Under the pieces are notes generated by a model. That model did no database searches. It was given only the letters and a program-made list of their open reading frames with translations, and was not told where the DNA came from. The position numbers and the translations under genes are program-made. A DNA stretch of 16,203 nt from a virus (taxonomy: Duplodnaviria; Heunggongvirae; Uroviricota; Caudoviricetes), in IMG/VR virus record IMGVR_UViG_2547132271_000008, positions 1 to 16,203 of that record. The stretch is one strand, 5' to 3'. Of this stretch, positions 475 through 15,150 are shown piece after piece; position 1 is the stretch's first letter; each line of letters opens with the position of its first letter.

Positions 475-496
475 AAAAGTAATATTCAGGGATGAC

Positions 497-1045: not shown

Positions 1046-1065
1046 CCCGTACATATACGGGTTAT
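1042..1065. terminator. perfect hairpin between convergent genes; likely bidirectional intrinsic terminator
   Basis: ATAACCCGTA (1042-1051), loop CATA, TACGGGTTAT (1056-1065). T-rich on both sides: TTTTAGTTT on +, and the complement of GATAAAGAAAAA on -. Sits between the + gene ending 1045 and the - gene ending 1079. Confidence 0.45.
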
Positions 1066-1078
1066 CCATAGTTTTAGT

Positions 1079-1351
1079 TTAGTTATATTTTTGTTTTTCC
1101 GTTCTGACTTTTTCCCACTCAGCTCGCCCTTCTTCCCGTCTTTTGTCAATATATTCCGCAAGATCCTGAATGTTGATGCAGCGTTTTGCTTTTTGTGATG
1201 TACCGATGCGATATGTAGGTACAGGCAACTTACAAGCGTTTGCTTTTGCTTCTGCTGTGGCTGGACTCATACCAAAGTATTTTTGACTAACTGCTGAGAG
1301 TTCAATGTTTGGGGTATTGAATTCAGCCATCAGTAAAAACAAGGTGTTCAT
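1079..1351 (-). CDS. PrtN/excisionase-like small DNA-binding protein
   Basis: Start chosen at the internal ATG (MNTLFLLMAEF...) because GGAG lies about 7 nt upstream; the ORF could extend to 1378. Motif KYFGMSPATAEAKANACKLPVPTYRIG resembles PrtN/Xis-type HTH proteins. Last gene of the leftward operon, the usual xis position. Confidence 0.5.
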   Translation of the reverse strand: MNTLFLLMAEFNTPNIELSAVSQKYFGMSPATAEAKANACKLPVPTYRIGTSQKAKRCINIQDLAEYIDKRREEGRAEWEKVRTEKQKYN

Positions 1352-1387
1352 AATTTTCTCCATCAAAACCGGCTGCACCCGGGAAAA

Positions 1388-1963
1388 TCATAATTCTGTG
1401 CTGGTGGCAGGAATTAGTTTCTGCCAGATAGCGGAAACATATTTTGCCTGATGACGGGCATCAGCCAGGGCGTTGTGCCGTTCTCCATCGAAAGGCATGT
1501 CCATTTTTGGGTCGAATCCGATGGAACGCCCAAGCGTAACGATCGTGCGTACATCGTGATCATTCCAGTACGCCCATGGGCAGATTTGTCCTGCTCGTTC
1601 ATAAGCTCCGCGTAAAATTACGTTGTCGAAGGTGGCCCCGTTACCCCAGACTTTTAAATATTTCGTATTGTCTGCGTGCCGATTAATGAAATGGCTCAGT
1701 TCAGAGAGTGCATCGCTGATCGACAAAGTATCATCAATAGAGATTGCAGCTCGTGCTTCAGGGCTTTGTTTCAACCACCACAGGATGGTATCGCCGTCAG
1801 GTGTGGCCCCTTGCTCCATGGCACTTTCCAGGCTAACAACCGTATAGAATTCTTGTCCGATATCTCCTGTTTCTGTGGTAAAGAACACTGCGCCAATGGA
1901 AACGATCGGTGCATCCTTATTTTTCCCCATCGTCTCAAGGTCGATCATTAAGTTGTTCATCAC
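1388..1963 (-). CDS. 3'-5' exonuclease, DnaQ-like (DEDDh) phage family
   Basis: 191 aa with DEDDh-type motifs: MIDLETMG near the N-terminus, WGNGATFDNVIL in the middle, ERHNALADARHQAKY near the C-terminus. ATGA start/stop overlap with the upstream gene. Confidence 0.7.
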   Translation of the reverse strand: MMNNLMIDLETMGKNKDAPIVSIGAVFFTTETGDIGQEFYTVVSLESAMEQGATPDGDTILWWLKQSPEARAAISIDDTLSISDALSELSHFINRHADNTKYLKVWGNGATFDNVILRGAYERAGQICPWAYWNDHDVRTIVTLGRSIGFDPKMDMPFDGERHNALADARHQAKYVSAIWQKLIPATSTEL

Positions 1964-2670
1964 TTCACCTCCTGCGGCGGTTCCGGTAGCGGCATCCAGT
2001 GAGTTGCTTGCTCAATACCATTACCCGGCTTAATTGTTGCACCTCCGCGCCGAAAGGTGCTTCCGGTATAGCGTGCGGAGCATATTAGCGGTTCAACCAG
2101 AGAGCTATCGAAATTCACCGAAATAAGCACGTTCTGGCCCTTTTCAGGCATTCGATCACTACAGCTTATCCAACTATCCGGAGTTCCCGGAGAGTTGCCA
2201 TTTACATCGAAGTTCGGCTCTGCGTCCTGAACCAGGAGGATGTAACCATTCTTGGCTGTATCAAGTTCTAACGCCTCGGTGACGGTGCCGAAATAGCGAT
2301 TACCTAAATCAGCATCACAAGTGCTTACATCAATGGAAACTTCCATGCCTTCGATTAATTCTGGCAAGTTGTAAGTTTGGCTTACAGGTTGGCTACCCTG
2401 AAGCATGGCGGCGCGGTGACACCAGATAATCCAGCCAAGCGCCATATCCCATGCCATGTATTCTCTATCGCCATTTTTTGCCCTACGGCGATCTACAGAT
2501 TCCCCGAAACGCTTCTCCATAAATAATTCATAGGCTGCTCGTTCATCCGATACTGCTGCCAGCGATGCCAGTGCAATTCGTGCCAGTTCCATTTGTTCGC
2601 CACGAGTAAGCCCGTTTTCAAGCGGATTTTTAATGAACAATTCAATACGTTCTTTGGTAATACTGGTCAT
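1960..2670 (-). CDS. DUF551 domain-containing phage protein
   Basis: 236 aa. C-terminal WISCSDRMPEKGQNVLISV...ATHWMPLPEPP matches the DUF551 signature common in lambdoid early-left regions. SD GAGGA upstream; ATGA overlaps with both neighbours. Confidence 0.6.
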   Translation of the reverse strand: MTSITKERIELFIKNPLENGLTRGEQMELARIALASLAAVSDERAAYELFMEKRFGESVDRRRAKNGDREYMAWDMALGWIIWCHRAAMLQGSQPVSQTYNLPELIEGMEVSIDVSTCDADLGNRYFGTVTEALELDTAKNGYILLVQDAEPNFDVNGNSPGTPDSWISCSDRMPEKGQNVLISVNFDSSLVEPLICSARYTGSTFRRGGATIKPGNGIEQATHWMPLPEPPQEVK

Positions 2671-2876
2671 TTGTTAATCCTCAAAACTTTATGCCCAGGC
2701 GCAAAAGCACGCGTTTTGTCTTTGCTTATTCGCCAGCCATCCTTGCGCGCCTCTTTTGCACAGCCTGCCCATGACGTACCGATATACTCACCGAAGTCTG
2801 GCCCTGGATATACACATTCCGTACACTGGCGGCAGTCACAATAGAGATGCATTGTGTAACTTGCGGCAATAGCCAT
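2667..2876 (-). CDS. small Cys-rich hypothetical protein
   Basis: Start set at MAIAAS... (ATG 2876) because AAGGAGG lies about 5 nt upstream. Cysteine cluster (CDCRQCTEC...GC). Translationally coupled within the operon. Confidence 0.45.
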   Translation of the reverse strand: MAIAASYTMHLYCDCRQCTECVYPGPDFGEYIGTSWAGCAKEARKDGWRISKDKTRAFAPGHKVLRINK

Positions 2877-2877
2877 A

Positions 2878-3441
2878 TCACCCTCCTTTACCATGAAGCA
2901 TGGCGTCGCTCCGCTCTATACCATCCAGCGCGATTCGCAGTGCCTGAATTGTGGTAGTGCTATCGTTTGGGGCTATTCCATATCGCTCGAATACAGCGAT
3001 ATGACCGCGCATAATCTCAGGCGTAAGCTCTTTGTAAGCATAAGCAAGCGACCCTGATGCATTATCCGGCACTACTGGCGATGGCTGTTTAGCTTCTAAA
3101 TCAGCAATTCTGTCAACCACGGCATCGACGGCATCTGAAAAACTGAAACAGTTACTCCACTCCGGCCTATCCCCGGTTGCTGCAAAATACATATCAGATA
3201 AAGCAGACTCAGCATTGTCACGCTCATTGATGAGTTGCTCTTCGCTTTCCTCCAGCTCTGCAATGCGTTTGCTTTGGGCTTCTCGTTCATCCAGCAGCGC
3301 CAGCACAATGTGTGGCGTTATCAAGGACTCAAATTCGGCAACAGCTTGCTCACCTCGCTTGTAATTCTTAATCCCACCTAAATCTTTCGCGTTCTGTGCC
3401 GCCTCACGCAGCGCCAGTGTGTCGATGTCGATGTTGCTCAT
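2878..3441 (-). CDS. Ead/Ea22-like early protein (tentative)
   Basis: Start at MSNIDID (ATG 3441) with GAGGAGG about 4 nt upstream. Acidic coiled-coil middle (RIAELEESEEQLINERD) typical of Ea22-like proteins. Family call from memory. Confidence 0.45.
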   Translation of the reverse strand: MSNIDIDTLALREAAQNAKDLGGIKNYKRGEQAVAEFESLITPHIVLALLDEREAQSKRIAELEESEEQLINERDNAESALSDMYFAATGDRPEWSNCFSFSDAVDAVVDRIADLEAKQPSPVVPDNASGSLAYAYKELTPEIMRGHIAVFERYGIAPNDSTTTIQALRIALDGIERSDAMLHGKGG

Positions 3442-3671
3442 TGTGCCTCCTCGATTTCGTCCCATTCCACCCAGGCATTCTCTCCATCAGCATCGATTTC
3501 ACCTTTGTGACCGCATTTGGAACAAACGGCCTCATCACCCGCCCACAAAGAATCTTTGGTTACCGACCATCCTGTTACCCTGGCTTTGCCGTGCTGGCAC
3601 TTAGGGCAATCATCAAGCCATTCGACTTCGACCGTTGAAGGACCAAATCCATGTTCAGTTCGGATGCTCAT
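3438..3671 (-). CDS. small zinc-ribbon protein
   Basis: CPKC...(22 aa)...CSKC motif. ATGA-type overlaps at both ends (3668-3671 and 3438-3441). Start taken at the internal Met (MSIRTEH). Confidence 0.45.
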   Translation of the reverse strand: MSIRTEHGFGPSTVEVEWLDDCPKCQHGKARVTGWSVTKDSLWAGDEAVCSKCGHKGEIDADGENAWVEWDEIEEAQ

Positions 3672-4024
3672 GACTGAACTCCTTTGCGAATCTGTTCCGC
3701 CCATTCTTCAAGGGATTTCTCCGCATATTCACCGGACAGGCCATCAATCGGATGCGATTCATTAGCTAACTCTTCTTTTGCTGACAGAATCATGCGTGTA
3801 ACGTCGAAAACTTCAGCCAAAGGCTTATTGATAAATCCGTGATTGAAAGCAGCAGCAAGACGGCTTGCGGTATAGTTAATACCCTCGTTGCGAGCCTCAG
3901 CACGTACTTCATCGAATTTACGCACCAGATACTCAGCATTTGTTTCATTCACTTTCAGATCTCGCGGTACACATTTCCCGCGAAGAAACCCTTCCATTTC
4001 GAAAACATTCATGCGCATTTGCAT
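3668..4024 (-). CDS. hypothetical early-left protein (YfdS-like by position and size)
   Basis: 118-aa ORF in the operon between the yfdR-like and zinc-ribbon genes. No recognisable domain. Overlaps the yfdR-like 3' end by 16 nt. Confidence 0.45.
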   Translation of the reverse strand: MQMRMNVFEMEGFLRGKCVPRDLKVNETNAEYLVRKFDEVRAEARNEGINYTASRLAAAFNHGFINKPLAEVFDVTRMILSAKEELANESHPIDGLSGEYAEKSLEEWAEQIRKGVQS

Positions 4025-4545
4025 AACCCCGATAACTCGTTAAAACGTTCCATAAACATCCCGTAGGCATGGCCTGGTGACAGTGGAATAACTTTGAACA
4101 TCTCTGTCGCCGGGATACCTTCCAGTACAGGCCAGAAAGAACCATCATCAAGCCCGAGATCGCGGCGTTCGGTTGCCAGCATAATGAGATCGGCATATTT
4201 CACTGGCGTGCTCATAACAGGAGGTAACCCGTATTTCTCACGGATTACGGCGTCTATTTTTTCTTCCATCCGTTTATAGTCAGGAAGAAGGCGTTTCAGT
4301 GGTGCGGGGATGTCCTGGCAATATGCTTCTGTTGCATCATGCATTAACGCTTCAAAAGCAAATTCCTGCGGTACCAGCTGGCTGCAAAGCACCGCATGTT
4401 GGGCGACGCTGTAGAAGTGTGAAAGATGTCCTGCAAAGCGACAGATATTTGAAAGGGAAACCGCGATATCGTTAATAACGATGTCGTCTTTATTTATCTT
4501 GTCATAATAAAAATGCTTCCCGGAAAAAGTTTTAATAAATGACAT
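4009..4545 (-). CDS. yfdR: HD-domain phosphohydrolase (YfdR-like 5'-deoxynucleotidase)
   Basis: HD-type motif (ALMHDATEAY) and conserved His-rich N-terminal part. Start taken at MSFIKTF, giving 178 aa, the length I recall for E. coli CPS-53 YfdR. Symbol assigned from memory. Confidence 0.65.
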   Translation of the reverse strand: MSFIKTFSGKHFYYDKINKDDIVINDIAVSLSNICRFAGHLSHFYSVAQHAVLCSQLVPQEFAFEALMHDATEAYCQDIPAPLKRLLPDYKRMEEKIDAVIREKYGLPPVMSTPVKYADLIMLATERRDLGLDDGSFWPVLEGIPATEMFKVIPLSPGHAYGMFMERFNELSGLCKCA

Positions 4546-4672
4546 TTTGTTCTCCACGTATATGCGCTGCACCGCGCTGAATTCTGCTAAAAGGAAGCTC
4601 TCACCATCCGGTGATTATTGAGTTAATTACGTTTCCATAAATGCCCCCGCAGGGGCATTTGCAGTAATGAAA

Positions 4673-5497
4673 TCAGGCGGTGAAAGTACCAATAAAGGTT
4701 TCTACTTTGCTGTCTTTGAATTTCTCAACAAGCAGATCACGAAATTCGTTAGCCATTTCTTCCTGCATCGCTTCCAGCTGAATAATGCGCAGAACCAGTA
4801 CAGGACGATCGCCAGTGATAATGCTGAGGCGTAATTTAAACGGACGTTCTTTCAGGCCTTCAAACGGAACGCATTTAAATTCAAATGCCACTGGCATAAT
4901 GTCTTTGGTTTTCGCTTCGACAGACTCCATCAGAGAGCGTTTGCCGCTGAAGTCATTGTCTTCAAAATCAGCGGTCTGGTTTGCTTCAATTGTGATTTTA
5001 CGGACTGCCGCAGCCGCTTTGGTTGCCTGAATGGTGTCACCATTAGCATCAAAGCCCACAAGGTAGTCGGCCCAGTCTTCAATCCATTCTGCCAGTGACT
5101 TCTGGGAGTTACGCTCGCCATTAACAGACAACAGAGCAGAAAACGGTGCTGTCTTTTTCAGTTTGAGGGTGGCGGTGTTATCTGCGTGACCTGGTTCATC
5201 AATAGTACCCAGGTTAAGCACACTGACGGCTCGCATATTATCGGCATCGATAAAGCAGCGGGTGCCTTCATCTGCAAGATCTTTAGAATAACGGGTAAAG
5301 TCATCGATGCTGGCAGTGGAAAGCGCACCACGGAAACGGAAGCGATTTAAATTAAATTTTTCCAGATCATGAATGCGGAAATTCTCAGGCAATGCCACAG
5401 CATCGGCACCAATCTTACTGATAATTTCATTAACACCCTGAGCAGAAATAAGGGCATGGATTTGATTAATTGCGGTTGCGTCTAAGTTCTGAGACAT
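4673..5497 (-). CDS. yfdQ: YfdQ-like prophage protein (DUF2303-type, function unknown)
   Basis: 274-aa ORF, same length and operon position as CPS-53 YfdQ. Clean coding appearance. Symbol assigned from memory. Confidence 0.6.
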
Positions 5498-5562
5498 AAT
5501 AAGTCCTCACTATATAAAGATATTCAGTGATGAGATAAATAATCAGTTTATTAAAAACGATA

Positions 5563-5925
5563 TTAACGACCTGCTGCGCGGAGTTTTCCGTCAGGTTCAC
5601 CGGCAAGAGTCAGTAATTGTCCCTGGTCTTCCTGCAGAATAGTCAGGCGACCACCGCGATTGACATACATCGGCGTTTCGGTGGTGTCTTCTTCGGAAAT
5701 TTTCCCGCGGTTAGTCGGGCGAACATATGAGAGTTTGTGTTTGATTTTCACACGGTTCTCATCAAATGGTTCGATTTCCAGGTTGAGTGAGACCTTACCT
5801 TTGGTTTTCGTGTTCATCACACCGGAAGCGACTTCACTGAGAACTGCGCCGATTTTGGTTTCAAATACGCCGCCGTCCAGCTCCCCGATAAATGCCTGCA
5901 CATCAGTACTGCGTTCGCTAGCCAT
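5563..5925 (-). CDS. yfdP: YfdP-like prophage protein
   Basis: ORF track gives 182 aa, but the N-terminal 62 codons are Cys/Arg-rich and overlap the structured non-coding region. Internal ATG 5925 (MASERSTD...) has GAGGAG about 6 nt upstream and yields 120 aa, the length I recall for YfdP. Confidence 0.55.
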   Translation of the reverse strand: MASERSTDVQAFIGELDGGVFETKIGAVLSEVASGVMNTKTKGKVSLNLEIEPFDENRVKIKHKLSYVRPTNRGKISEEDTTETPMYVNRGGRLTILQEDQGQLLTLAGEPDGKLRAAGR

Positions 5926-5973
5926 TTTGCTGCTCCTCATCATATCGACCCTGCAAGGTCGGTTGGTTTCTCC

Positions 5974-6062
5974 ACAAAACAGAGAAGAACACCTGCGGTG
6001 GCAGCCGCCCGGATGGATTGGGTTATGAGCCCGTCGTCCGGTGATGCTCTTCTCTGTTTTGT
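5974..6062. repeat. 15-bp perfect inverted repeat (ACAAAACAGAGAAGA / TCTTCTCTGTTTTGT) around a 59-nt GC-rich spacer
   Basis: Read directly: arm A 5974-5988, arm B 6048-6062, exact reverse complements. Lies in a ~400-bp gap with no convincing ORF, immediately 3' (on the - strand) of the terminator at 6060-6108. Confidence 0.8.
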
Positions 6063-6108
6063 AAAAAGAGCGGTACCAGCCGGAAGCAAGTGTACAAACT
6101 GGTACCGC
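6060..6108 (-). terminator. Rho-independent terminator for leftward transcription (tL1-like position)
   Basis: 10-bp GC-rich stem GCGGTACCAG (6070-6079) / CTGGTACCGC (6099-6108) with a 19-nt loop. On the - strand it is followed by UCUUUUUACA (6069-6060). About 220 bp downstream of the first leftward gene. Confidence 0.5.
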
Positions 6109-6328
6109 CAAAGCAGTGGCTGTTGTGGTGCCGGGTGCCTCCCGGTGCCTGGCGAAGGTTGCACACCAGGCGGGTGGGTATCCACAGAAGGTCGACTGTC
6201 AGTCTCAACCTTAACCCGCGTGCGCTGAGCCGCATTCACCACAACGCTAAGGATTCTCTCTGGTTGAAAATACTTAGCTGTTATGTGCCTGCTTTTAGCC
6301 ACATCAGGCGAGGTGGTAGGTACGTGAG

Positions 6329-6697
6329 CTACTTGGTGGTATTTGCCTTCGATGAGGCAAGATAGGCATCAAGATCACTTTTTAGGTAAATAACCTTTCT
6401 ACCGATTTTTAAAAAAGGTATTCGAACTTTTCCTGTGCTAGCCCAATTAGCTAAGGTTTGCGCTTCTACGCCGATATAGGCTGCGGCGTCTTCTCTATTC
6501 ATTTTTTCATGTTGTTCTGACAGAATACTCGTTGCTTCAAAATCAAAGCCCAGCCTTTCAAAGGCATAGATAATAGAGCCCAAAGCCATTTGTTTAACTG
6601 TTCTGTAGTTACTGCTTTCAACTTGGCTTAATGCAGTTTTTGCTGCTTCAATCACCACAAGCCAGGCATCTCGTTGGTTGTCGATACTGCCATCCAT
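6329..6697 (-). CDS. DNA-binding protein with C-terminal AlpA/excisionase-type HTH (HTH_17-like), in the N-gene position
   Basis: Start taken at ATG 6697 (MDGSID...) with AGGAGA about 6 nt upstream; the GTG at 6703 is too close to the SD. C-terminal AAAYIGVEAQTLANWASTGKVRIPFLKIGRKVIYLKSDLDAYL fits an AlpA/Xis-type HTH. Not Arg-rich, so not N-like. Confidence 0.5.
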   Translation of the reverse strand: MDGSIDNQRDAWLVVIEAAKTALSQVESSNYRTVKQMALGSIIYAFERLGFDFEATSILSEQHEKMNREDAAAYIGVEAQTLANWASTGKVRIPFLKIGRKVIYLKSDLDAYLASSKANTTK

Positions 6698-6703
6698 ATT
6701 CAC

Positions 6704-6875
6704 TCTCCTGCCATGTGCGAATCATCCGGTCATTCATACGCCACCGTCGGCTACTTCGTGGGCGTCCTGCCTGTTCGTTATCTTTGATATAAAAATCTAA
6801 CTTAACTTAGTTTTGATGGCAAGAGAAAACACCAAACTTTTCTTAGTTCGGTGTTTTGGTTAGAGAAAAGGGGGG
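6704..6875. promoter_or_regulatory. putative oL/pL region downstream of the repressor gene
   Basis: AT-rich gap containing ACTTAG/CTTAGT half-sites (CTAACTTAACTTAGTT at 6797-6812; TCTTAGT at 6841-6847) identical to those in the oR region. Promoter hexamers not confidently placed. Confidence 0.3.
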
Positions 6876-7502
6876 CTAGAGTTCGTATTGAACTCCTTTG
6901 ACTACACCAATGATGAGGCAATTACCATTGATCGGGATGTTGGGGTACCGGGGATTTAATGGCACTAAAAACTTTTGAGGGCCATCGATAACTAATTTTT
7001 TTACTGTGGCTTCGTTTGTTCCATCAAGTCTAGCGATGACTATTTTTCCATGCCGGGGTTCTGCATCAGGATCTACAATCACTGTTGCGCCTTCTGGTAT
7101 TGTTGGGAGGCCGTTAGGGTTAGTCATGGAGTCGCCTTTAACCTCCAATGCAAATGAGTTATCACCAATCTTTAATGATGTATCTACCCACTTGTCTACT
7201 TCACTAAACACTTCTGCTGTCCTGCACTCAGTAAACTGCCCAGCCTGAACCCACGAGATTACAGGAACTCTGCGCATGTTTGTGACGAGTTTGCCTTCAA
7301 ACTCCGCACCATAAAGAATGTAATCTATTGACGTATTGAAGAACTTCGCTAATTTTGAAAGTGCTTCCCCACCAGGGACATTGATGTCTTTCTCCCAGTA
7401 CCCCACAGCAACGTCACTTACTCCACAAAATTTACCCAATTCTTTCTGGGACGTTCTGGTAACTCTTCTCAGAGCTTTTATACGCTGACCAACCGTTTCC
7501 AT
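6876..7502 (-). CDS. cI: CI-like prophage repressor (N-terminal XRE-type HTH + C-terminal S24 LexA-like autopeptidase)
   Basis: 208 aa. N-terminal HTH (QKELGKFCGVSDVAVGYWEKD). C-terminal S24 signature with GDSM (EVKGDSMTNP) and a downstream Lys (TVKKL). Divergent from the Cro-like gene across a 97-bp operator region. Confidence 0.8.
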   Translation of the reverse strand: METVGQRIKALRRVTRTSQKELGKFCGVSDVAVGYWEKDINVPGGEALSKLAKFFNTSIDYILYGAEFEGKLVTNMRRVPVISWVQAGQFTECRTAEVFSEVDKWVDTSLKIGDNSFALEVKGDSMTNPNGLPTIPEGATVIVDPDAEPRHGKIVIARLDGTNEATVKKLVIDGPQKFLVPLNPRYPNIPINGNCLIIGVVKGVQYEL

Positions 7503-7599
7503 AGGAGCACCATTTCTTTAATTACTAAGTAATCTTAGTTTTTATTGACCTAAGATAGATTGATAATTAACATCTAATAAAACTTAGTTTGGAGGGCAT
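7503..7599. promoter_or_regulatory. oR-type operator/promoter region (divergent pRM/pR)
   Basis: Palindrome ACTAAGTAATCTTAGT (7524-7539) plus further CTAAG/ACTTAG half-sites (7551-7555, 7582-7587). Candidate rightward promoter TTGACC (7545-7550) with TAACAT about 17 bp downstream. GGAGGG SD before the cro-like ATG. Confidence 0.55.
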
Positions 7600-7800
7600 A
7601 TGACGACTGACGATATCGAAAGCTACTTCGGCAGCATTGAGAAAGTTGCTGCTTTTTTCGGCATAACAACTGAAGCCGTTTATCAGTGGCGAAACCGTCC
7701 TGGCCAGTTAATTCCAAAAGGACGTGCAGCAGAGGCTGCATATAGAACTTGCGGACGGTTGCCATTTAAACCTGAGCTTTATGAAAAATCTAATGGATAA
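7600..7800 (+). CDS. cro: Cro-like small HTH regulator
   Basis: 66 aa, first rightward gene opposite the repressor, with GGAGGG SD. HTH-like segment (FFGITTEAVYQWRNR). Confidence 0.6.
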   Translation: MTTDDIESYFGSIEKVAAFFGITTEAVYQWRNRPGQLIPKGRAAEAAYRTCGRLPFKPELYEKSNG

Positions 7801-8422
7801 ATCGATTTACAGAAACCACAGATATGAGGGCTTAAACGTGGGTAAAGAACCTGAATGGAAAGTTGATAAGCAACCAGCATGGCTGGTGGCAGCAATACGA
7901 AGAACGATTGCTGATTTACCTCATGGCTATGAGGAAGCAGCAGAAATTCTTGGTTTGTATAAATCTGATGATATCACCCCAGCAAAAGATCAATTGCATA
8001 ACAGACTGCGTAGCGGTGGGGATCAAATTTTTCCACTTGAGTGGGCCATGGTTTTACAGGATGCCAGTGGTACCAGGCATGTAACGGATGCAATAGCCCG
8101 TCGTAGTAATGGGGTGTTTGTGCCGCTGGTGGTCATTGATGACATTGACAATGGTGACATTAATCAGCGGCTGATGGAGTCAATAGAATGGATTGGCAAG
8201 CATTCCCAGTACTTACGCAAGGCAACTGCTGATGGAGTTATTGACCAAGCTGAGCGTGAGCAAATCGAAGAGAACAGCTACCAAGTAATGGCGAAGTGGC
8301 AGGAGCATTTAACACTGTTATTTCGTGTTTTTTGTGCGCCGGAAAAGAGTAACGCCCGCGAGTGTGCAGCTCCGGGCGTCGTGGCGTCGATTGCTTCTGG
8401 TTGTGGAGAAACTAACGCATGA
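7781..8422 (+). CDS. early regulatory protein, CII-like/YmfL-like (tentative)
   Basis: Second rightward gene, the cII position. Start uncertain: GTG 7724, ATG 7781 or ATG 7793, none with a clear SD, and it overlaps the cro 3' end. About 213 aa from 7781. Family call tentative. Confidence 0.45.
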
Positions 8423-8757
8423 ACAGTTTAACAACACACTACCGTCGTTCGCAACTGATTGCGCTTCCTGTACCGGGTGGAAAAGCGAAGGTGGAATATT
8501 GCTATGCAGTGAATGTACCAGGTGACAGGGAAATTGTAACCCACAGCTTTGCAGAGTGGGCTGTGGGTGATTTCAACCGGCAGAAGGAGACAGTCCTTTG
8601 CGACAAGTTAACCGCTGGTTCAAAGATCACTACGGAGTGCCCGTCAGAGTCATTCGTTGGGAGCCGGAAACACAACGGGTTATCTACCTCCGTGAAGGCT
8701 ATGAACATGAGTGCTTCAGCCCGCTCGAACAGTTTCGTCGTAAATTCAGGGAAATAG
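8419..8757 (+). CDS. hypothetical protein (YmfM-like by size/position); C-terminal half may be out of frame
   Basis: ATGA-coupled to the upstream gene and ends 10 nt before the O-like gene. After about codon 60 the composition turns Ser-rich with rare codons (TCA, GGG, CGG, TTA), while the overlapping frame looks more coding. Confidence 0.35.
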
Positions 8758-8810
8758 AGGTCGGTCATGAGCCTGTTAATGACATCCCAGCCCATTGTGA
8801 TAAATCGTGA
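8598..8810 (+). CDS. alternative-frame ORF with TTG start and strong SD (possible real overlapping gene or 3' part of a frameshifted gene)
   Basis: AAGGAGA (8584-8590) lies 7 nt before TTG 8598. The 70-aa product ([40 protein letters not shown]...) has a globular-looking composition and preferred E. coli codons. It overlaps the O-like gene start by 44 nt. Confidence 0.3.
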
Positions 8811-9759
8811 TCTTGCATGCCGTATTGGTCTGAATGAGGCAATTGTGTTGCAGCAGCTTCATTACTGGCTGAATGAAACGAATTCCGGCACTGAGCATGG
8901 CGGAATTCGCTGGGTTTATAACACGACAGAACAGTGGCTGGAGCAGTTTCCGTTCTGGTCAGAGTCCACTCTGAAACGCACATTTGCAAGCCTGAAATCA
9001 CTTGGGGTTTTGCGTCGCGAGCAACTCAATAAATCGAAGCGTGACATGACCAACTTCTACACGATCAACTATGAAAGTGAGCTTCTAGAAGAGGTCAAAG
9101 TGAACGAATCCATCAGGTCAAAATGCACTTCTCCATCGGGTCAAAGTGACCTGATGGATGGGCGCAAAATGACACGATCCATTGGTTCAAAACGACACGC
9201 TGTCATCGGGTCAAAATGGCCCAATGATCTTACAGAGAATACAACAGAGATTACTACAGAGAATAAAACCTCTTCTCGTCCGGACGCTTCGCAACCGGAC
9301 ACGCAGATGGCTGAACAGGATTTTTTAACTCGCCATCCTGATGCGGTTGTATTCAGCCCTAAAAAGCGCCAGTGGGGAACGCAGGATGATTTGACCTGCG
9401 CACAGTGGCTCTGGAAAAAAATCATCGCTCTGTACGAGCAGGCCGCCGAATGTGACGGCGAAGTGGTACGTCCTAAAGAACCGAACTGGACAGCCTGGGC
9501 AAACGAAATTCGCCTGATGTGTGTACAGGATGGGCGTACTCACAAACAAATCTGCGAGATGTACAGCCGCGTCAGCCGCGATCCGTTCTGGTGCCGTAAC
9601 GTGCTCAGCCCGTCGAAGCTGCGGGAAAAATGGGATGAGCTTTCCCTGCGCTTATCGCCGTCCGTCAGCACGCACACAGAAAAACGCGAAGACCCGTACT
9701 TCAAAGCCAGTTACGACAATGTGGACTACAGCCAGATCCCGGCAGGATTCAGGGGGTGA
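8767..9759 (+). CDS. phage replication initiation protein (lambda O-like replisome organizer)
   Basis: N-terminal [27 protein letters not shown]...WVYNTTEQWLEQFPFWSESTLKR resembles the replisome-organizer N-domain. Iterons lie inside the gene, as in lambda O. Sits in the canonical position after the cII-like gene. Confidence 0.7.
   Translation: MSLLMTSQPIVINRDLACRIGLNEAIVLQQLHYWLNETNSGTEHGGIRWVYNTTEQWLEQFPFWSESTLKRTFASLKSLGVLRREQLNKSKRDMTNFYTINYESELLEEVKVNESIRSKCTSPSGQSDLMDGRKMTRSIGSKRHAVIGSKWPNDLTENTTEITTENKTSSRPDASQPDTQMAEQDFLTRHPDAVVFSPKKRQWGTQDDLTCAQWLWKKIIALYEQAAECDGEVVRPKEPNWTAWANEIRLMCVQDGRTHKQICEMYSRVSRDPFWCRNVLSPSKLREKWDELSLRLSPSVSTHTEKREDPYFKASYDNVDYSQIPAGFRG
9091..9270. repeat. 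origin-like iteron array (six ~23-bp-spaced GGTCAAARTG repeats) followed by an AT-rich ACAGAGA triple repeat
   Basis: Read directly: iteron cores at about 9093, 9116, 9139, 9162 (degenerate GCGCAAAATGA), 9185 (GGTTCAAAACGA) and 9209. Then ACAGAGA at 9233, 9244 and 9256 in an AT-rich stretch. Confidence 0.6.
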
Positions 9760-9761
9760 TC

Positions 9762-10250
9762 ATGAGTCTTTTGAATGAAGCTCAGAAATTCATTGAAGCC
9801 CATCCGGGGTGTACTTCCGGAGACATTGCGGATGCTTTTGCAGGTTACTCACGGCAGCGCGTTCTGCAGTCAGCAAGCAAGTTACGTCAGAGTGGGCGTG
9901 TGGCTCACCGTTGTGAAGGAGATACACGCAGACATTTCCCACGCCTGACTGAGAGAGCGCAGGAGCCGGAACCACAACCAGTTCGTGAAACCAGACCTGT
10001 GCGCAATTTCTATGTCGGCACTAACGATCCCCGGGTGATTTTGTGCCTGACCCGCCAGGCTGAAGAACTGGAGTCCAAGGGCTTATACCGTCGTGCTGCA
10101 ACCGTGTGGATGGCGGCATTCCGTGAAAGCCACTCCCAGTCAGAACGAAACAATTTTCTGGCGCGCCGTGAGCGGTGCTTACGGAAAAGCAGCAAGCGCG
10201 CTGCATCGGGTGAAGAGTGGTATCTGTCAGGGAATTACGTGGGGGCTTAA
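9762..10250 (+). CDS. PerC-like transcriptional regulator (tentative)
   Basis: AGGGGG SD 5 nt before ATG 9762. C-terminal LESKGLYRRAATVWMAAFRES...RRERCLRK resembles the PerC/Pch core as I recall it. TAATG overlap with the next gene. Confidence 0.4.
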   Translation: MSLLNEAQKFIEAHPGCTSGDIADAFAGYSRQRVLQSASKLRQSGRVAHRCEGDTRRHFPRLTERAQEPEPQPVRETRPVRNFYVGTNDPRVILCLTRQAEELESKGLYRRAATVWMAAFRESHSQSERNNFLARRERCLRKSSKRAASGEEWYLSGNYVGA

Positions 10251-10903
10251 TGAGTAATAAATATTGCCAGGCGCTGGTGGAACTGCGGAACAAACCAGCC
10301 CATGAACTGAAGGAAGTGGGCGATCAGTGGCGCACGCCGGACAACATTTTCTGGGGAATTAACACCCTGTTTGGCCCGTTTGTTCTGGATCTGTTCACTG
10401 ACGGTGATAACGCCAAATGTGCCGCGTATTACACGGCGGAAGATAACGCGCTGGCGCATGACTGGTCAGAACGTCTTGCGGAGCTTAAAGGTGCTGCCTT
10501 TGGTAATCCCCCATACAGCCGCGCCAGTCAGCATGAGGGGCAATACATCACCGGCATGCGTTACATCATGAAACATGCCAGTGCCATGCGTGATAAGGGC
10601 GGGCGCTATGTTTTCCTGATCAAAGCTGCCACCAGCGAAGTGTGGTGGCCGGAAGATGCGGACCATATTGCTTTTATTCGCGGGCGTATTGGTTTTGAAC
10701 TGCCTGCCTGGTTTATCCCGAAGGATGAGAAGCAGGTGCCGACAGGAGCTTTCTTCGCTGGTGCTATTGCTGTTTTCGACAAGACCTGGAAGGGACCGGC
10801 AATCAGCTACATCGGGCGCGATGAACTTGAGGCATGTGGTGAAGCCTTTCTGGTGCAGGTTCGCCAGCAGGCGGAAAAACTGGTCAGGGAGATGGCAGCA
10901 TGA
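10250..10903 (+). CDS. phage Dam-type N6-adenine DNA methyltransferase
   Basis: Catalytic NPPY motif (AAFGNPPYSR) and the N-terminal KYCQALVE...WRTPDNIF pattern of small phage Dam-family methylases. Coupled to neighbours (TAATG and ATGA). Confidence 0.7.
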   Translation: MSNKYCQALVELRNKPAHELKEVGDQWRTPDNIFWGINTLFGPFVLDLFTDGDNAKCAAYYTAEDNALAHDWSERLAELKGAAFGNPPYSRASQHEGQYITGMRYIMKHASAMRDKGGRYVFLIKAATSEVWWPEDADHIAFIRGRIGFELPAWFIPKDEKQVPTGAFFAGAIAVFDKTWKGPAISYIGRDELEACGEAFLVQVRQQAEKLVREMAA

Positions 10904-11226
10904 CGACGTTAACTCAATGCCAGCAGCAGGTGCTGGATATGCTGATTTCTTACCAGAAAGAACGTGGCTTCCCGCCAACCAATCAGGAGGTGGCAACCAT
11001 GCTGGGATACCGTTCAGTGAATGCAGCGGTGGAGCATCTTCGCGCACTGGAGAAAAAAGGCGTCATTACGATAAAGCGTGGCGTGGCCCGGGGGATAACG
11101 CTTCATACCGCAGTGAAGGACGACGACAGAGAGGCGGTCGGGATTATCCGCTCACTGCTTGCCGGTGAGGAAAACGCAAGGCTGCGTGCAACCCACTGGT
11201 TACATGAGAGGGACCTGAAAGTATGA
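10900..11226 (+). CDS. LexA N-terminal DNA-binding-domain-like protein lacking the S24 peptidase domain
   Basis: MTTLTQCQQQVLDMLISYQKERGFPPTNQEVATMLGYRSVNAAVEHLRALEKKGVITIKRGVARGITL aligns by eye with E. coli LexA residues 1-70. Only about 38 further residues follow, with no Ser/Lys catalytic domain. Confidence 0.65.
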   Translation: MTTLTQCQQQVLDMLISYQKERGFPPTNQEVATMLGYRSVNAAVEHLRALEKKGVITIKRGVARGITLHTAVKDDDREAVGIIRSLLAGEENARLRATHWLHERDLKV

Positions 11227-11612
11227 AGCTGATCCTGCCTTTTCCGCCCAGCGTGAACACGTACTGGCGACATCCCAACAAAGGGGCGTTTGCTGGTAAG
11301 AGCCTGATAAGCGCGGCGGGGCGAAAATTCCAGAGCGCGGCGTGCGCAGCAATAGTTGAGCAGTTACGTCGTCTGCCAAAACCAACGTCGGCACCTGCTT
11401 CAGTGGAGATCGTGTTGTTTCCTCCGGATAACCGGATCCGCGATCTGGACAACTATAACAAGGCGCTGTTTGACGCCCTGACCCACGCGGGTGTGTGGGA
11501 AGACGACAGTCAGGTGAAAAGAATGCTGGTGGAGTGGGGACCGGTTATCCCGGAAGGGAAGGTCGAGATCACCATCAGTAAGTACGAGAAAACGGCGGGT
11601 GCAGCCGCCTGA
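11223..11612 (+). CDS. rusA: RusA Holliday-junction resolvase
   Basis: 129 aa. N-terminal LPFPPSVNTYWR and the acidic catalytic region (IRDLDNYNKALFDALTHAGVWEDDSQV) are typical of RusA. ATGA overlap with the upstream gene. Confidence 0.85.
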   Translation: MKLILPFPPSVNTYWRHPNKGAFAGKSLISAAGRKFQSAACAAIVEQLRRLPKPTSAPASVEIVLFPPDNRIRDLDNYNKALFDALTHAGVWEDDSQVKRMLVEWGPVIPEGKVEITISKYEKTAGAAA

Positions 11613-11631
11613 TCAAGAGGAGAAACGAAGT

Positions 11632-12441
11632 ATGAATAATCTGATGGTCATTGATGGTATTGAAGTTCGTCGTGATGCTTATGGGCGTTACAGCCTGAAC
11701 GATCTGCACAGGGCTGCCGGGGGAGAACAAAAAAACCGCCCGAAATACTGGCTCTCCAATAAGCAAACCTGTGAATTGATTGAACAACTTTTCACCGAGG
11801 GTGGAATTCCGCCTCTGGAACAAAATCAACCAGTTAGCGTCATTAATGGCGGAAATAACCAGGGGACGTATGTCTGCAAAGAACTGGTGTATGCCTATGC
11901 AATGTGGATCAGCCCGTCATTCCATCTGAAGGTGATCCGTACTTTCGACATGGTAACCAGCGCACCGGAAAAATTATCCGGACAGGCTGCTGACAAGATG
12001 CAGGCTGGCGTGATCCTGCTGGACTTTATGCGCCGGGAATTAAATCTGTCTAACTCATCAGTGCTTGGAGCCTGTCAGAAGCTTCAGGAGGCTGTTGGCT
12101 TACCGAATCTGGCACCGCGCTATGCCATTGATGCTCCTGCTGACGCGCCTGATGGCTCAAGTCGCCCCACGCTGTCGCTGAGTGCACTGCTGAAGCAGTA
12201 TGGTATCCGCCTGACAGCTAATCAGGCATATCACCAGATGGCGAAGCTGGGGATCGTTGAACAACGTGAACGATACAGCCGCACTGCGATTAACAACATC
12301 AAAAAATTCTGGTCGCTGACAGCGAAAGGCTGCATGTTCGGCAAAAACATCACCAGTCCCGCAAATCCGCGCGAGACGCAGCCGCATTTCTTCGAATCCC
12401 GATTCCCTGAGCTGTTAAAGCTGCTCGATACCGTTCATTGA
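11632..12441 (+). CDS. KilA-N domain protein (anti-repressor/Bro-type)
   Basis: Start at MNNLMVIDG with GAGGAG upstream. N-terminal YSLNDLHRAAGG...RPKYWLSNKQTCELI matches the KilA-N signature. Confidence 0.65.
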   Translation: MNNLMVIDGIEVRRDAYGRYSLNDLHRAAGGEQKNRPKYWLSNKQTCELIEQLFTEGGIPPLEQNQPVSVINGGNNQGTYVCKELVYAYAMWISPSFHLKVIRTFDMVTSAPEKLSGQAADKMQAGVILLDFMRRELNLSNSSVLGACQKLQEAVGLPNLAPRYAIDAPADAPDGSSRPTLSLSALLKQYGIRLTANQAYHQMAKLGIVEQRERYSRTAINNIKKFWSLTAKGCMFGKNITSPANPRETQPHFFESRFPELLKLLDTVH

Positions 12442-12442
12442 G

Positions 12443-13438
12443 GTGACCGTGAGAGCACTACTGACCCCTGAAATTGCCCCGCGTATGGGGATCGTATTGT
12501 TCAGGCCAGGTTCAGAGCTGATGCCCCTGTTTATGCAGGGGCGTGTTCTGCTGGAGCCTGAGCCGGAACGTTACTCATCTTTCGCCAGTGGTGCCGTTCC
12601 GGCGGCATCACAACCGCTGGCGGATGATCCTGCCGTTCGGGCCGTGTTCCGCAATGAGGCAGTGATCCGTCGTGCTGGTGGCGTGGAATGTCTTGAAAGC
12701 TGGTTACTTCGTGAAAAAGGCTGCCAGTGGCCTCATTCCGACTGGCACAGCGAGAACATGACCACAATGCGACACGCTCCGGGTGCAATCCGTCTGTGCT
12801 GGCACTGCGATAACCAGCTGCGCGATCAGTTCACGGAACGGCTGGAATCAATGGCAACGGATAACTGTGCCCGCTGGGTGTTGTCTGTTGTGCGTCGGGA
12901 TCTCGGTTTTGATGATAGTCACGTTGTGACAATGCCGGAACTGTGCTGGTGGCTGATTCGTAATGATCTGGCGGATGCCTTACCGGAAAGTGCAGCCCGT
13001 AAGGCACTGAGATTACCGAAGCCTGTTGTGCCGTCTGTTACCCGGGAAAGTGACCTTGTGCCTTCGGTTCCTGCCACCAGCATCATCCAGGATAAAGTGA
13101 AAAAGGTGCTGGCGCTGAAAGTGGATCCGGAGTCGCCGGAGTCTTTTATGTTACGCCCAAAACGTCGCCGCTGGGTTAATGAAAAGTACACGCGCTGGGT
13201 TAAGACACAGCCGTGTGCATGTTGTGGTAAGCCTGCTGATGATCCCCACCACCTGATAGGTCACGGTCAGGGTGGAATGGCTACAAAAGCGCATGACCTC
13301 TTTGTGTTGCCTTTGTGCAGAAAGCATCACGACGAGCTGCATGCGGATACCGTGGCATTTGAAGAGAAGTATGGCTCCCAGCTGGAGCTGATATTTCGTT
13401 TTATCGATCGTGCGCTGGCAATAGGCGTGCTGGCCTGA
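12443..13438 (+). CDS. DUF968-type protein with C-terminal Cys/His (HNH-like) motif, NinG/YdfU-like
   Basis: C-terminal CACCGKPADDPHHLIGHGQGG...PLCRKHHDELH cluster. Exact start uncertain among GTG 12443, GTG 12449 and ATG 12485. Sits in the nin-region position before Q. Confidence 0.55.
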   Translation: MTVRALLTPEIAPRMGIVLFRPGSELMPLFMQGRVLLEPEPERYSSFASGAVPAASQPLADDPAVRAVFRNEAVIRRAGGVECLESWLLREKGCQWPHSDWHSENMTTMRHAPGAIRLCWHCDNQLRDQFTERLESMATDNCARWVLSVVRRDLGFDDSHVVTMPELCWWLIRNDLADALPESAARKALRLPKPVVPSVTRESDLVPSVPATSIIQDKVKKVLALKVDPESPESFMLRPKRRRWVNEKYTRWVKTQPCACCGKPADDPHHLIGHGQGGMATKAHDLFVLPLCRKHHDELHADTVAFEEKYGSQLELIFRFIDRALAIGVLA

Positions 13439-13455
13439 TTTTGTGGAGAAAGTTG

Positions 13456-13827
13456 ATGCGTGATATTCAAATGGTTCTTGAACGTTGGGGGGCATGGGTG
13501 GCAAATAATCACGAGGATGTGGAATGGTCATCTGTTGCTGCAGGTTTTAAGGGATTAATTCCTTCGAAAGTAAAATCCCGCCCGCAATGTAGCGATGACG
13601 ATGGCCTGATCATTAGCTCTGCGATGACAGTTCTTAAGAAAAAGGAACCGTATCAATACGAATTACTGGAAATGTATTATGTGTATGGGGTTACATTACG
13701 GGCGTTGGGGGTAAAACTGGGGATATCACTTAATCAGGTTGTTATCAGACTGCAGAAAGCTGAAGGGTTTATTGACGGTTGTCTGGCAATGTTGGGGGTA
13801 TCTTTAGAAATTGATTGTTACATATAG
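13456..13827 (+). CDS. late-gene antiterminator Q-like protein
   Basis: About 123 aa with GGAG SD 7 nt before ATG 13456. Last gene of the nin-type block after RusA and DUF968. Sequence (MRDIQMVLERWGAWVANNHEDVEW...YELLEMYYVYG) resembles the small Q family of phage 82/21-type phages. Confidence 0.65.
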   Translation: MRDIQMVLERWGAWVANNHEDVEWSSVAAGFKGLIPSKVKSRPQCSDDDGLIISSAMTVLKKKEPYQYELLEMYYVYGVTLRALGVKLGISLNQVVIRLQKAEGFIDGCLAMLGVSLEIDCYI

Positions 13828-13902
13828 TAATAAATTCAATCAAAGTAAATAATCATATTTTATTATAACCTCCTGATGATACCTGTTCATTGGGAGGTTA
13901 TT

Positions 13903-14520
13903 ATGGATAAAAATGTAGAGCATGTATTAGTTGATGCAATTGAAAATAAGCTATCTTTAACAGTCGTTTACTTAGGAGGGAGCCAGCCCGGAACATTAAG
14001 GAATATTTCTCCGATTAGTATAAATGGGGATAAATTGCGGGCAAGATGCCATAGTTCTGGAGCAGTAAAGGTTTTCAATCTTGGGAAAATACAGTTACCC
14101 AGTGACTCCTGCGCGGTATCTATGCACTATGGAGATTTAGAAGTTAAAGCTTATGAGACGATGCAGAGCGTAAATGACAACTTTCATGCCCTTTATCCTG
14201 AAGGACGATGGGGTGTTGATTTTAATGAGCATCGCTTTGCTTTATTTGATTTTTTTAAAAACGGGAAACGAAAAAAAACGGCATTTATGGCAATTGAGTT
14301 CAGGGAAAGAGATGAAGAGAAAATAATAACAGGTGTAACAATTGATATTGGTATATCTGGAACAGTGATTTCTGAGAAGTCCCGAATCCCAAAAAGACGA
14401 CCATGGGTAGTGGTTGGTCCCGAACACGGAGAATACAGTACTTATTCAACTTTGGACAAGGCTGCTACAGCGTTTTTTGAGAGGCTATCGTTGATAGCAT
14501 CCGGCCTGGAAGATAATTGA
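13903..14520 (+). CDS. hypothetical cargo protein of unknown function; N-terminal segment possibly WYL/SH3-like beta fold
   Basis: GGGAGG SD 5 nt before ATG 13903, 75 bp after Q. Visibly AT-rich compared with flanking phage genes. N-terminal LSLTVVYLGG...LRNISPISINGDKLRARC...KVFNLGKI loosely resembles a WYL-type motif; no confident family. Confidence 0.55.
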   Translation: MDKNVEHVLVDAIENKLSLTVVYLGGSQPGTLRNISPISINGDKLRARCHSSGAVKVFNLGKIQLPSDSCAVSMHYGDLEVKAYETMQSVNDNFHALYPEGRWGVDFNEHRFALFDFFKNGKRKKTAFMAIEFRERDEEKIITGVTIDIGISGTVISEKSRIPKRRPWVVVGPEHGEYSTYSTLDKAATAFFERLSLIASGLEDN

Positions 14521-14650
14521 TTTTATGTTTGGTATTCAGAGTTCGCCGTGCTTAAGAAAGTCAAGATTCTAAAAATACTGAATGAGCTACTTGTGTTATA
14601 ACAAAAATGCTATTAGTGTGTTAAGAGTGGTTACTTCGACACACAACTTA

Positions 14651-14675
14651 AACCCGCCACTGAGCGGGTTTTTTG
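14651..14675 (+). terminator. Rho-independent terminator
   Basis: Stem ACCCGC (14652-14657) / GCGGGT (14664-14669) with loop CACTGA, followed by TTTTTTG. About 130 bp downstream of the cargo gene. Confidence 0.6.
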
Positions 14676-14796
14676 TACCTGTAAACTTGGTGCAGTACAG
14701 TAAACACGCTGGTGGTCGTGAATACTGACTTTTTATCTTGCTGGCTTTTTAGACAAGAGTTATTGGTATGTCATGTTAACCAGAAGGGAAAAAGAC

Positions 14797-15000
14797 ATGC
14801 TAAAACAGCAAGATATGACAGAAACCGCCGCCGCAGTCCTTCATTTCTTACCTGCTGACAAGTGGGTAACGCCACGCATGATGACGAGAACTACCGGAGT
14901 AAGCGAAGCCCGGTGCCAGTTAATACTGACTCAGTTAGTTCTGGCGGGTCTGGCGAAGGATAACGGCGGGTACGGGAATAAATTCAGACGCTGCCAGTAA
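14797..15000 (+). CDS. small putative winged-helix DNA-binding protein (FaeA/PapI-like pattern, tentative)
   Basis: 67 aa from ATG 14797 with AAGGGA SD 7 nt upstream. Pattern AAAVLHFLPADKWVTPRMMTRTTGVSEARCQLILTQLVLAGLAK resembles small wHTH regulators. Lies 150 bp upstream of the methyltransferase. Confidence 0.35.
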   Translation: MLKQQDMTETAAAVLHFLPADKWVTPRMMTRTTGVSEARCQLILTQLVLAGLAKDNGGYGNKFRRCQ

Positions 15001-15150
15001 TGGCGGTTTCCTGCTGTGAAAATGGGCGGCTGGTGGGTGTTGGTAGCACCTGCCAGCCATTCGCTCATGCTTACTGGTCACAAGCGAACCACGGCCCACT
15101 GCTTTAGCGCAAAAGCAGAGTGAGCCTACCAGAGTTACGCTTACTGATCC

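Follow-up and report, generated by a model that had tools for sequence, protein, structure and literature searches.

Evidence that ymfM and a DUF4222 gene overlap out of frame in the replication module of a lambdoid prophage

When two open reading frames (ORFs) share the same nucleotides, are both of them genes, is only one, or are they the pieces of a single gene that shifts frame? This question is raised by a locus in IMG/VR virus record IMGVR_UViG_2547132271_000008 (Caudoviricetes), of which we analysed positions 1 to 16,203 (16,203 nt, hereafter the window). The locus forms part of the immunity/replication module of a lambdoid prophage of the e14/SfII/mEp460 type, whose identity to mEp460_4F5 over 7700-9800 is 99.5%. 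It carries ORF1, which corresponds to ymfM of Escherichia coli K-12, and ORF2, which encodes a protein of the DUF4222 family. A sequence-only reading had named all three alternatives. From the evolutionary patterns in the two frames we consider it probable, at roughly 80%, that this DNA carries two real protein-coding genes in overlapping, different frames, with no frameshift.

Identity of the two frames and selection on each

The layout from which the sequence-only reading started stands up to analysis. ORF1 is coupled to the gene upstream, its ATG at 8419 overlapping the TGA at 8420-8422 of the CII/YmfL-like gene (ATGA), and it ends at TAG 8755-8757. ORF2 runs in another frame from TTG 8598 to 8810 (70 amino acids, aa), which is -1 relative to ORF1, so that ORF1 is the +1 frame of ORF2. 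A near-consensus Shine-Dalgarno (SD) sequence, AAGGAGA at 8584-8590, stands 7 nt before this TTG, and at its far end ORF2 shares 44 nt with the O-like gene (ATG 8767). The frame of ORF2 is open from 8571, after TGA 8568-8570, and offers no start candidate but TTG 8598. Ser makes up 11/52 residues of the ORF1 tail, so that the second half of this ORF is Ser-rich as described. What did not survive is the supposed contrast between rare codons in the tail and preferred codons in ORF2: an index modelled on the codon adaptation index, with the long ORFs of the window itself as reference, came to 0.752 in the tail frame and 0.756 in that of ORF2, and several codons rare in E. coli (CGA, GGA, CCC, AGA, CGG, AGG, ATA) are found by eye within ORF2.

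Both frames can be named. ORF1 is identical to K-12 YmfM (b1148) at 108/112 aa (96%), with the same ymfL-ymfM-O synteny, and matches phrog_1170 (E=5e-70); it has no Pfam family, and NCBIfam holds a model for neither ORF1 nor ORF2. ORF2 scores 66.5 bits on Pfam DUF4222 (PF13973), whose curated gathering cut-off is 27 (E=1.5e-18), its residues 2-53 aligning to profile positions 3-52 of 53, i.e. the full-length domain. It also matches phrog_1343, and its exact cluster (P0001), which NCBI names DUF4222, is among the 145 protein clusters of that name. The overlap is more than chance, because ORF2 has this Pfam match and the ORF1 frame is open across ORF2 in every locus of the same arrangement (55/55).

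Annotation of this DNA is contradictory. The locus is found in 2016/5426 complete E. coli genomes, K-12 included. In a 100%-identical E. coli genome the Prokaryotic Genome Annotation Pipeline (PGAP) places the coding sequence (CDS) WP_001250270.1 at exactly 8598..8810, keeping DUF4222 only and leaving 8423-8597, the N-terminus of ymfM, unannotated, and K-12 strains are treated likewise. In curated MG1655 the sole entry is 'cell division inhibitor YmfM', most phage records have only the 112-aa ORF, as YmfM or as a hypothetical protein, and one Klebsiella phage record has DUF4222 alone. EcoCyc/MG1655 (ymfM only) and RefSeq PGAP (DUF4222 only) are thus mutually exclusive for the same DNA, and on our evidence both are incomplete.

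To compare loci we mapped two hidden Markov models (HMMs), one for module A (YmfM residues 1 to ~58) and one for module B (DUF4222), onto 84 loci taken from phage records plus one genome per species. We call type I the arrangement seen in the window, where A occupies B's +1 frame and reaches 160-178 nt into B; it is represented by 55 unique sequences from Escherichia, Shigella, Klebsiella, Enterobacter, Citrobacter, Kosakonia, Kluyvera, Pantoea, Phytobacter and others. Ratios of nonsynonymous to synonymous differences (pN/pS) are Nei-Gojobori counts over 54 non-redundant type I loci.

The non-overlapping part of A shows purifying selection (pN/pS 0.1-0.44), and so does B (0.08-0.34), where synonymous differences saturate at a pS of ~0.73. 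Read in the tail frame, the same nucleotides as B give a pN/pS of 4.5 falling to 1.4. Every synonymous change in B alters a tail residue, because the third position of a B codon falls on the second position of a tail codon, and these counts indicate that the tail is without residue-level constraint. Between the window and K-12, the 4 aa at which YmfM differs all belong to the tail, and the 58 aligned residues of DUF4222 are 100% identical. Among 52 unique junctions the B start codon is ATG in 45, TTG in 4 and GTG in 3, with an SD-like word in 51/52. Structure prediction with AlphaFold2 gives DUF4222 a confident beta-rich core (predicted local distance difference test, pLDDT, 87-90 over residues 10-50), and the protein is predicted to fold as a small beta-barrel. 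For YmfM the corresponding values are 55-73 in the N-terminal module and 32-39 in the Ser/Thr/Ala/Gly-rich tail, which is predicted to be disordered. Taken together, it is practically certain that DUF4222 is a gene and very likely that the N-terminal module of ymfM is one as well.

Each single-gene view has something in its favour. If only ymfM were a gene and the DUF4222 frame a chance ORF, as MG1655 and most phage records imply by annotating ymfM or the 112-aa ORF alone, the weak TTG start here would be no surprise. This view is scarcely credible against a full-length Pfam match, substitutions in the overlap that are overwhelmingly synonymous in the B frame, a conserved start and SD, a confident predicted fold and the presence of B without overlap in other phages; moreover, a function has been demonstrated for one DUF4222 protein, RgdR (PMC3378721). 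Conversely, PGAP implies that only DUF4222 is a gene and ymfM a spurious long ORF, since it omits ymfM in E. coli genomes including the K-12 strains; ORF1 has no Pfam or NCBIfam family, and with a pN/pS above 1 and low pLDDT its tail resembles out-of-frame sequence. However, the N-terminal 58 aa are conserved, their ATG is ATGA-coupled to ymfL, module A is matched by its HMM in most loci and is a stand-alone gene in distant phages, and stop avoidance in the ymfM frame across B is highly non-random (see below), which makes a lone DUF4222 gene highly improbable. The alternative of a single real gene is therefore contradicted in both directions, though each annotation pipeline implies one version of it, and that of two genuinely overlapping genes is borne out by independent evolutionary signatures in both frames.

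Table 1. Features of the ymfM/DUF4222 locus in the window, with the basis for each
Feature	Coordinates	Strand	Basis
ymfL / CII-like gene	7865..8422	+	phrog_101 CII-like and Pfam Phage_CP76; PGAP start 7865, mEp460_4F5 start 7838
ORF1 = ymfM, 112 aa: conserved N-terminal module and overprinted tail	8419..8757	+	K-12 YmfM 96%, phrog_1170
Module A = YmfM N-terminal ~58 aa	8419..8595	+	HMM, pN/pS, stand-alone genes
YmfM tail, 52 codons and stop, +1 frame of DUF4222	8599..8757	+	pN/pS >1, no stop in 55/55
SD sequence AAGGAGA of the DUF4222 gene, within ymfM codons	8584..8590	+	read from sequence
ORF2 = DUF4222 gene, 70 aa, TTG start	8598..8810	+	Pfam PF13973, PGAP CDS, pN/pS, AlphaFold2
Junction TAG-AGGTCGGTC-ATG: ymfM stop, GAGG (8757-8760) SD, O-like ATG	8755..8769	+	geometry in 55 loci
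O-like replication initiation gene	8767..9759	+	phrog_391 E=7e-102, PGAP start 8767
Antisense 97-aa ORF, codon-aligned to DUF4222	8502..8795	-	CDS in ON470608.1 and MK416017.1

Arrangement of the two modules in other phages

Module A, with the motif MNSLT..Q.R..PVPGG...Y.Y...VPG...H.F.EWAVGDF, is matched by its HMM in 74/80 loci, and almost everywhere it lies directly upstream of B, between the CII-like and O-like genes. In type II (Providencia, Erwinia, Yersinia, Morganella), A is a gene of 60-70 aa that ends at the B start. Other genes separate A from B in Hafnia yong2 and Citrobacter phiNP, and Providencia PSTRCR_117lys has A without B. As a gene of 59-69 aa A stands alone in L013, L014, L015 and L019 (Hafnia, Providencia, phiNP), and B is found without overlap in Providencia, Yersinia, phiNP, CharmingMan and others. 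Since A and B occur as separate genes, they are separable and not halves of one.

A phmmer search with the N-terminal 60 aa of YmfM against 1.8 billion representatives matched 55 proteins, and judged by these matches the family is narrow and enterobacterial. Multi-stretch matches to large repeat proteins (those scanned: one Listeria-Bacteroides-repeat and three DUF7507 proteins) look compositional (beta-strand repeats), and we did not take them as homologs. We likewise rejected phrog_20047, a 63-aa profile covering YmfM 1-63, as an ancestral short form: the proteins of 63-68 aa (P0163, P0181, P0184) are frameshifted or truncated e14 alleles. The true short forms of YmfM are the Providencia, Hafnia and phiNP genes.

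The separability of A and B bears on the remaining alternative, a single gene in which a mutational or programmed -1 shift yields a fusion of ~119 aa between the YmfM N-terminus and DUF4222. The frames are in the right relation for such a shift, fusion proteins of 102-119 aa do occur in assemblies (P0015, P0016, P0106, P0150), and an SfV-like in-frame A'-B fusion, P0232, is present on 44 contigs. However, the e14-type A-B fusions have four different junctions, pointing to sporadic indels or sequencing errors, and ~2000 E. coli genomes keep the non-fused arrangement, with identities of 95-100%. B brings a start and SD of its own, and A and B lie apart in Hafnia yong2 and phiNP. No indel separates the relatives. 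A search for slippery heptamers of the form X_XXY_YYZ from -60 to +60 of the B start in the 52 unique junctions found none except TTTAAAG at +21 in 4. The segment 8575-8680, where a stimulatory RNA structure might lie, folds no better than shuffles (z=0.49), and Rfam gave no match on 8200-9000 at E<=1. Frame-shifting as proposed by the sequence-only reading is thus extremely unlikely.

SfV-like loci differ at this junction. A run of 5-6 G lies just upstream of their DUF4222 start (L012 ~1185-1200, gtggggggcgag), and P0232 (109 aa; 19 members on the 44 contigs) joins the YmfM-like ORF to DUF4222 in frame exactly at this run, which may be slippage-prone or phase-variable or else a recurrent sequencing error.

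Further differences concern what the +1 frame does beyond B. In SfV, ST64B, a Citrobacter prophage and Hafnia it crosses B into an Ash domain that starts 20 nt past the B stop. The genes annotated there as transcriptional regulator, antirepressor or Ash start upstream of DUF4222 (L012 1052..1888, SfV orf37; L009 1058..2215, ST64B sb41; L065; L013 1484..2167, Hafnia yong2). In SfV, ST64B, Stx-phage-like prophages and Hafnia the Pfam domains of these genes, Ash (and Rha), begin at residues 68-117, after the whole of DUF4222, which is itself unannotated in these loci; SfV orf37 begins MNSLT.., like YmfM. It may be that the annotated N-terminal extension of these genes is real, or that their true start lies after DUF4222.

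In Providencia and Erwinia (L014 1187..1354, L067, L068, L069, L071, L073) the +1 frame holds a separate ORF that spans B. Its ATG overlaps the A stop (ccaATGAag), 7 nt after the DUF4222 ATG, and it ends 5-10 nt from the O start. The first 20 residues of the Providencia version are strongly hydrophobic (MKMLIISIAFIWISGVFAFASYVM), and this ORF may encode a third product.

The open tail frame and the start of the O-like gene

Why should the tail be open at all if its residues are free to change? For the given B proteins and local codon usage, only ~7% of sequences would be expected to be stop-free over the domain, and 18% with B's own codon usage at non-critical sites, where a critical codon is one in which a synonymous third base would make TAA, TAG or TGA in the +1 frame. 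Across 13 representatives with <75% nucleotide identity, and assuming independence, the product of P(open) is 2e-9. The avoidance is visible codon by codon: Leu is CTC or CTT at 44/48 critical sites and CTG at 30/40 non-critical sites (p=4e-12), Val ends in T or C at 96/100 critical versus 33/43 non-critical sites (p=1e-3), and Ile is ATA at 0/23 critical versus 17/84 non-critical sites (p=0.02), all these p-values, like those for openness, being approximate as the sequences are phylogenetically related. The +2 frame across B closes after 14 nt in most loci.

Controls were DUF4222 genes of other phages that have no ORF or start entering the +1 frame. Early +1 stops occur in 6/6 of them, the first at +13 in phiNP, +55 in KpnBHU6, +43 in CharmingMan, +4 in SaltyDalty, +85 in Morganella IME1369_02 and +55 in Yersinia artesiana. 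Loci outside type I that are open in +1 have an entry into the frame, namely the ATG in Providencia and Erwinia and the upstream gene in the SfV type. There is thus good reason to think, from codon choice in B, that selection keeps the tail frame open, and the evolutionary pattern suggests that the +1 frame across DUF4222 is translated. As in an overprinted pair, selection is seen in each frame that the other frame does not explain; residue-level conservation in the second product, the tail, was not found, only compositional bias.

The place where the tail ends offers a possible reason. AGG/GGA comes straight after the A-frame stop (TAG or TAA) in 55 loci, with the O ATG exactly 10 nt past the stop, giving the pattern TA[AG](A/G/C)GG..N..ATGAGC. 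In the window TAG 8755-8757 is overlapped by GAGG 8757-8760 ahead of ATG 8767, so the upstream stop is close to the downstream SD and start, as expected for translational coupling. O and ymfM share a frame, and the O ATG sits inside the conserved C-terminal His-Glu codons (CAT GAG) of DUF4222.

Two side observations concern this junction. The O-like gene is started at the equivalent of 8779 in mEp460_4F5 and at 8767 by PGAP; the latter is favoured because ATGAGC with GAGG 6 nt upstream is kept in 55 loci. DUF4222 exists in forms of 59 aa and 70 aa that co-vary with ATGAGCC versus ATGAGCA at the O start, and in the window (8767-8810) the 11 extra residues are the out-of-frame reading of this O allele's N-terminus.

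We propose that ymfM encodes the conserved module A of ~58 aa, after which, in this lineage, ribosomes read 52 more codons through the next gene. B, a DUF4222 member, would be translated independently from its own AAGGAG SD and TTG 8598. The tail is the +1 reading of DUF4222, and synonymous DUF4222 codons that make tail stops would be purged by selection. The coupling chain would run from ymfL through ATGA to ymfM, and from the ymfM stop on the SD to O, with ymfM ribosomes carried across the embedded gene; a premature stop in the tail would uncouple O. The junction geometry is consistent with delivery of ribosomes to O as the reason for the open tail, an explanation that we prefer but hold tentatively and at somewhat less than even odds.

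Several observations, besides the relatedness of the sequences, weigh against parts of this scheme. No conserved RNA structure masking the O start was found (-0.66 kcal/mol; z=+1.6), and translation of DUF4222 also passes the O start and could couple it alone. Four Yersinia loci are +1-open without an obvious entry, although a chance P(open) of 0.16-0.18 each can cover them. These loci, with B's preference for C-ending codons (0.37 versus a background of 0.25 at four-fold sites), would fit an open +1 frame that is a passive by-product of DUF4222 composition and codon bias under no selection. Such a by-product is very unlikely: the avoidance is site-specific, as the Leu codons show, P(open) is low even with B's own codon usage, and all six DUF4222 genes without a feeding ORF have early +1 stops.

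Also on the opposing side, the tail departs from a stop-free synonymous null, in a test made without correction for phylogeny or B's C-ending codon preference: Ser is raised (23.0 vs 15.9%), Phe (1.8 vs 5.3%) and Trp (0.2 vs 1.5%) are reduced, and Val and Ile are depleted, so that a function of the tail's own is possible. Selection appears to keep the tail polar. It is conceivable that both genes are real and the tail is kept open as a functional part of YmfM, e.g. a polar disordered segment for division inhibition or stability, and not for delivery to O. In addition to composition, CTG is avoided before G although TGG is no stop, the +1 segment of SfV, ST64B and Hafnia joins upstream sequence to the Ash domain, and that of Providencia and Erwinia is a separate ATGA-coupled ORF. 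Against this, residue-level conservation is absent, with B's synonymous sites saturated and Leu and Ser replacing each other at the same positions of the tail; the segment is hydrophobic in Providencia and polar in the enterobacterial versions; and what is conserved is the position of the stop relative to the O start. We regard a functional tail as unlikely, though a serious contender.

Around the locus, three observations touch neighbouring features. The mechanical ORF of the YmfL/CII-like gene (GTG 7724..8422, 232 aa) overlaps a cro-like ORF at 7600..7800 and is over-extended. The antisense ORF is annotated in ON470608.1 and MK416017.1 in place of either sense gene; it is probably a by-product of DUF4222 and not a gene, its frame presumably being open because DUF4222 is without TTA, CTA and TCA codons. 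Finally, E. coli NZ_CP039404.1, 100% identical over 8419-8810, diverges from the window in gene coordinates left of ~7500 and right of ~13440 (window ~13440-16203) and has four tRNA genes right of ~13440, while ARAGORN finds none in the window; this divergence is ordinary lambdoid mosaicism.

The SfiC phenotype and comparison with known systems

In E. coli K-12 one member of the pair, ymfM, already has a name and a published function, which now needs a re-test. YmfM of e14 was reported as the SOS-associated division inhibitor SfiC: the ymfM ORF in pBAD24 caused complete filamentation with loss of Z rings, and deletion of ymfM shortened filaments in a sulA recA441 background; the construct was the bare ymfM ORF, and there were no frame-specific mutants (Ansari et al., bioRxiv 10.1101/2020.11.19.390815). 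Going by coordinates, the cloned K-12 ORF holds the SD, the TTG and 53/59 DUF4222 codons, i.e. the whole Pfam domain, the deletion removes DUF4222 too, and earlier library clones cover both genes. Since published clones and deletions of ymfM include or remove DUF4222, the SfiC phenotype is not assignable to either protein.

It is therefore worth considering, as a speculation that we think rather improbable, that the DUF4222 protein, and not the 112-aa YmfM, underlies the 40-year-old SfiC or 'YmfM' phenotype or is needed for it, and that the tail is perhaps only a 'ribosome bridge' to the replication gene. If the bridge were true, selection would act on the frame for its continuity and not for its product. 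The identity of the division inhibitor SfiC is in any case reopened. The window and K-12 e14 share the same embedded ORF, in a 70-aa form here and a 59-aa form in K-12, but the O-like gene is intact here whereas e14 has the chimeric ymfN. Of the five papers that we found to mention DUF4222, none links it with ymfM, which the literature treats as a plain gene of 112 aa.

Among DUF4222 proteins only RgdR (ECs1581; 99 aa) has been characterised; it has an Arg-Gly-Asp (RGD) motif at residues 20-22 (PMC3378721). It is encoded by a phage-inducible chromosomal island (PICI)/cryptic prophage and controls type III secretion of the LEE (locus of enterocyte effacement) and motility (PMC3378721, PMC10877973, PMC6092414). 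Regulators of its type activate LEE1 and repress motility. Like ORF2 it is a small, mobile-element-encoded protein with a DUF4222 domain that was missed by annotation, in its case in EDL933. Unlike RgdR, ORF2 has 70 aa, with R-W-E at residues 20-22 and no RGD anywhere, and does not qualify as RgdR-type. RgdR lies in a different element, whereas ORF2 is in a replication module, embedded in ymfM; the two were compared by sequence only.

Termination at or near the next start is an established route to translational coupling, e.g. in ATGA overlaps and at trp operon junctions. The ymfM locus resembles these systems in that the ymfL stop overlaps the ymfM start (ATGA) and the ymfM stop lies on the O SD. 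It differs in that the coupled ORF must cross a whole independent gene in another frame, and O translation may depend on it.

Out-of-frame embedded or overlapping phage genes are known from Rz/Rz1 of lambda, the MS2 lysis gene and phiX174. Our locus is a well-supported further case of an embedded pair, of a kind ordinary in lambdoid phages. As with Rz/Rz1, one gene of a lambdoid genome sits wholly or largely within a second one, read in +1, and each has a start of its own. Both Rz and Rz1 products, however, are conserved and functional, whereas here residue-level constraint is seen only in the DUF4222 frame, and in the ymfM tail frame we see no more than an uninterrupted ORF, a bias in composition and a stop held at the ribosome-binding site that follows. 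The unusual pattern is thus one of ORF continuity apparently selected without sequence conservation and ending on the ribosome-binding site of the next gene. It bears on overlapping genes and translational coupling in phage operons, and on how gene callers handle long overlaps, and it sets the ymfM/DUF4222 pair apart from Rz/Rz1, in which both frames are held to their products.

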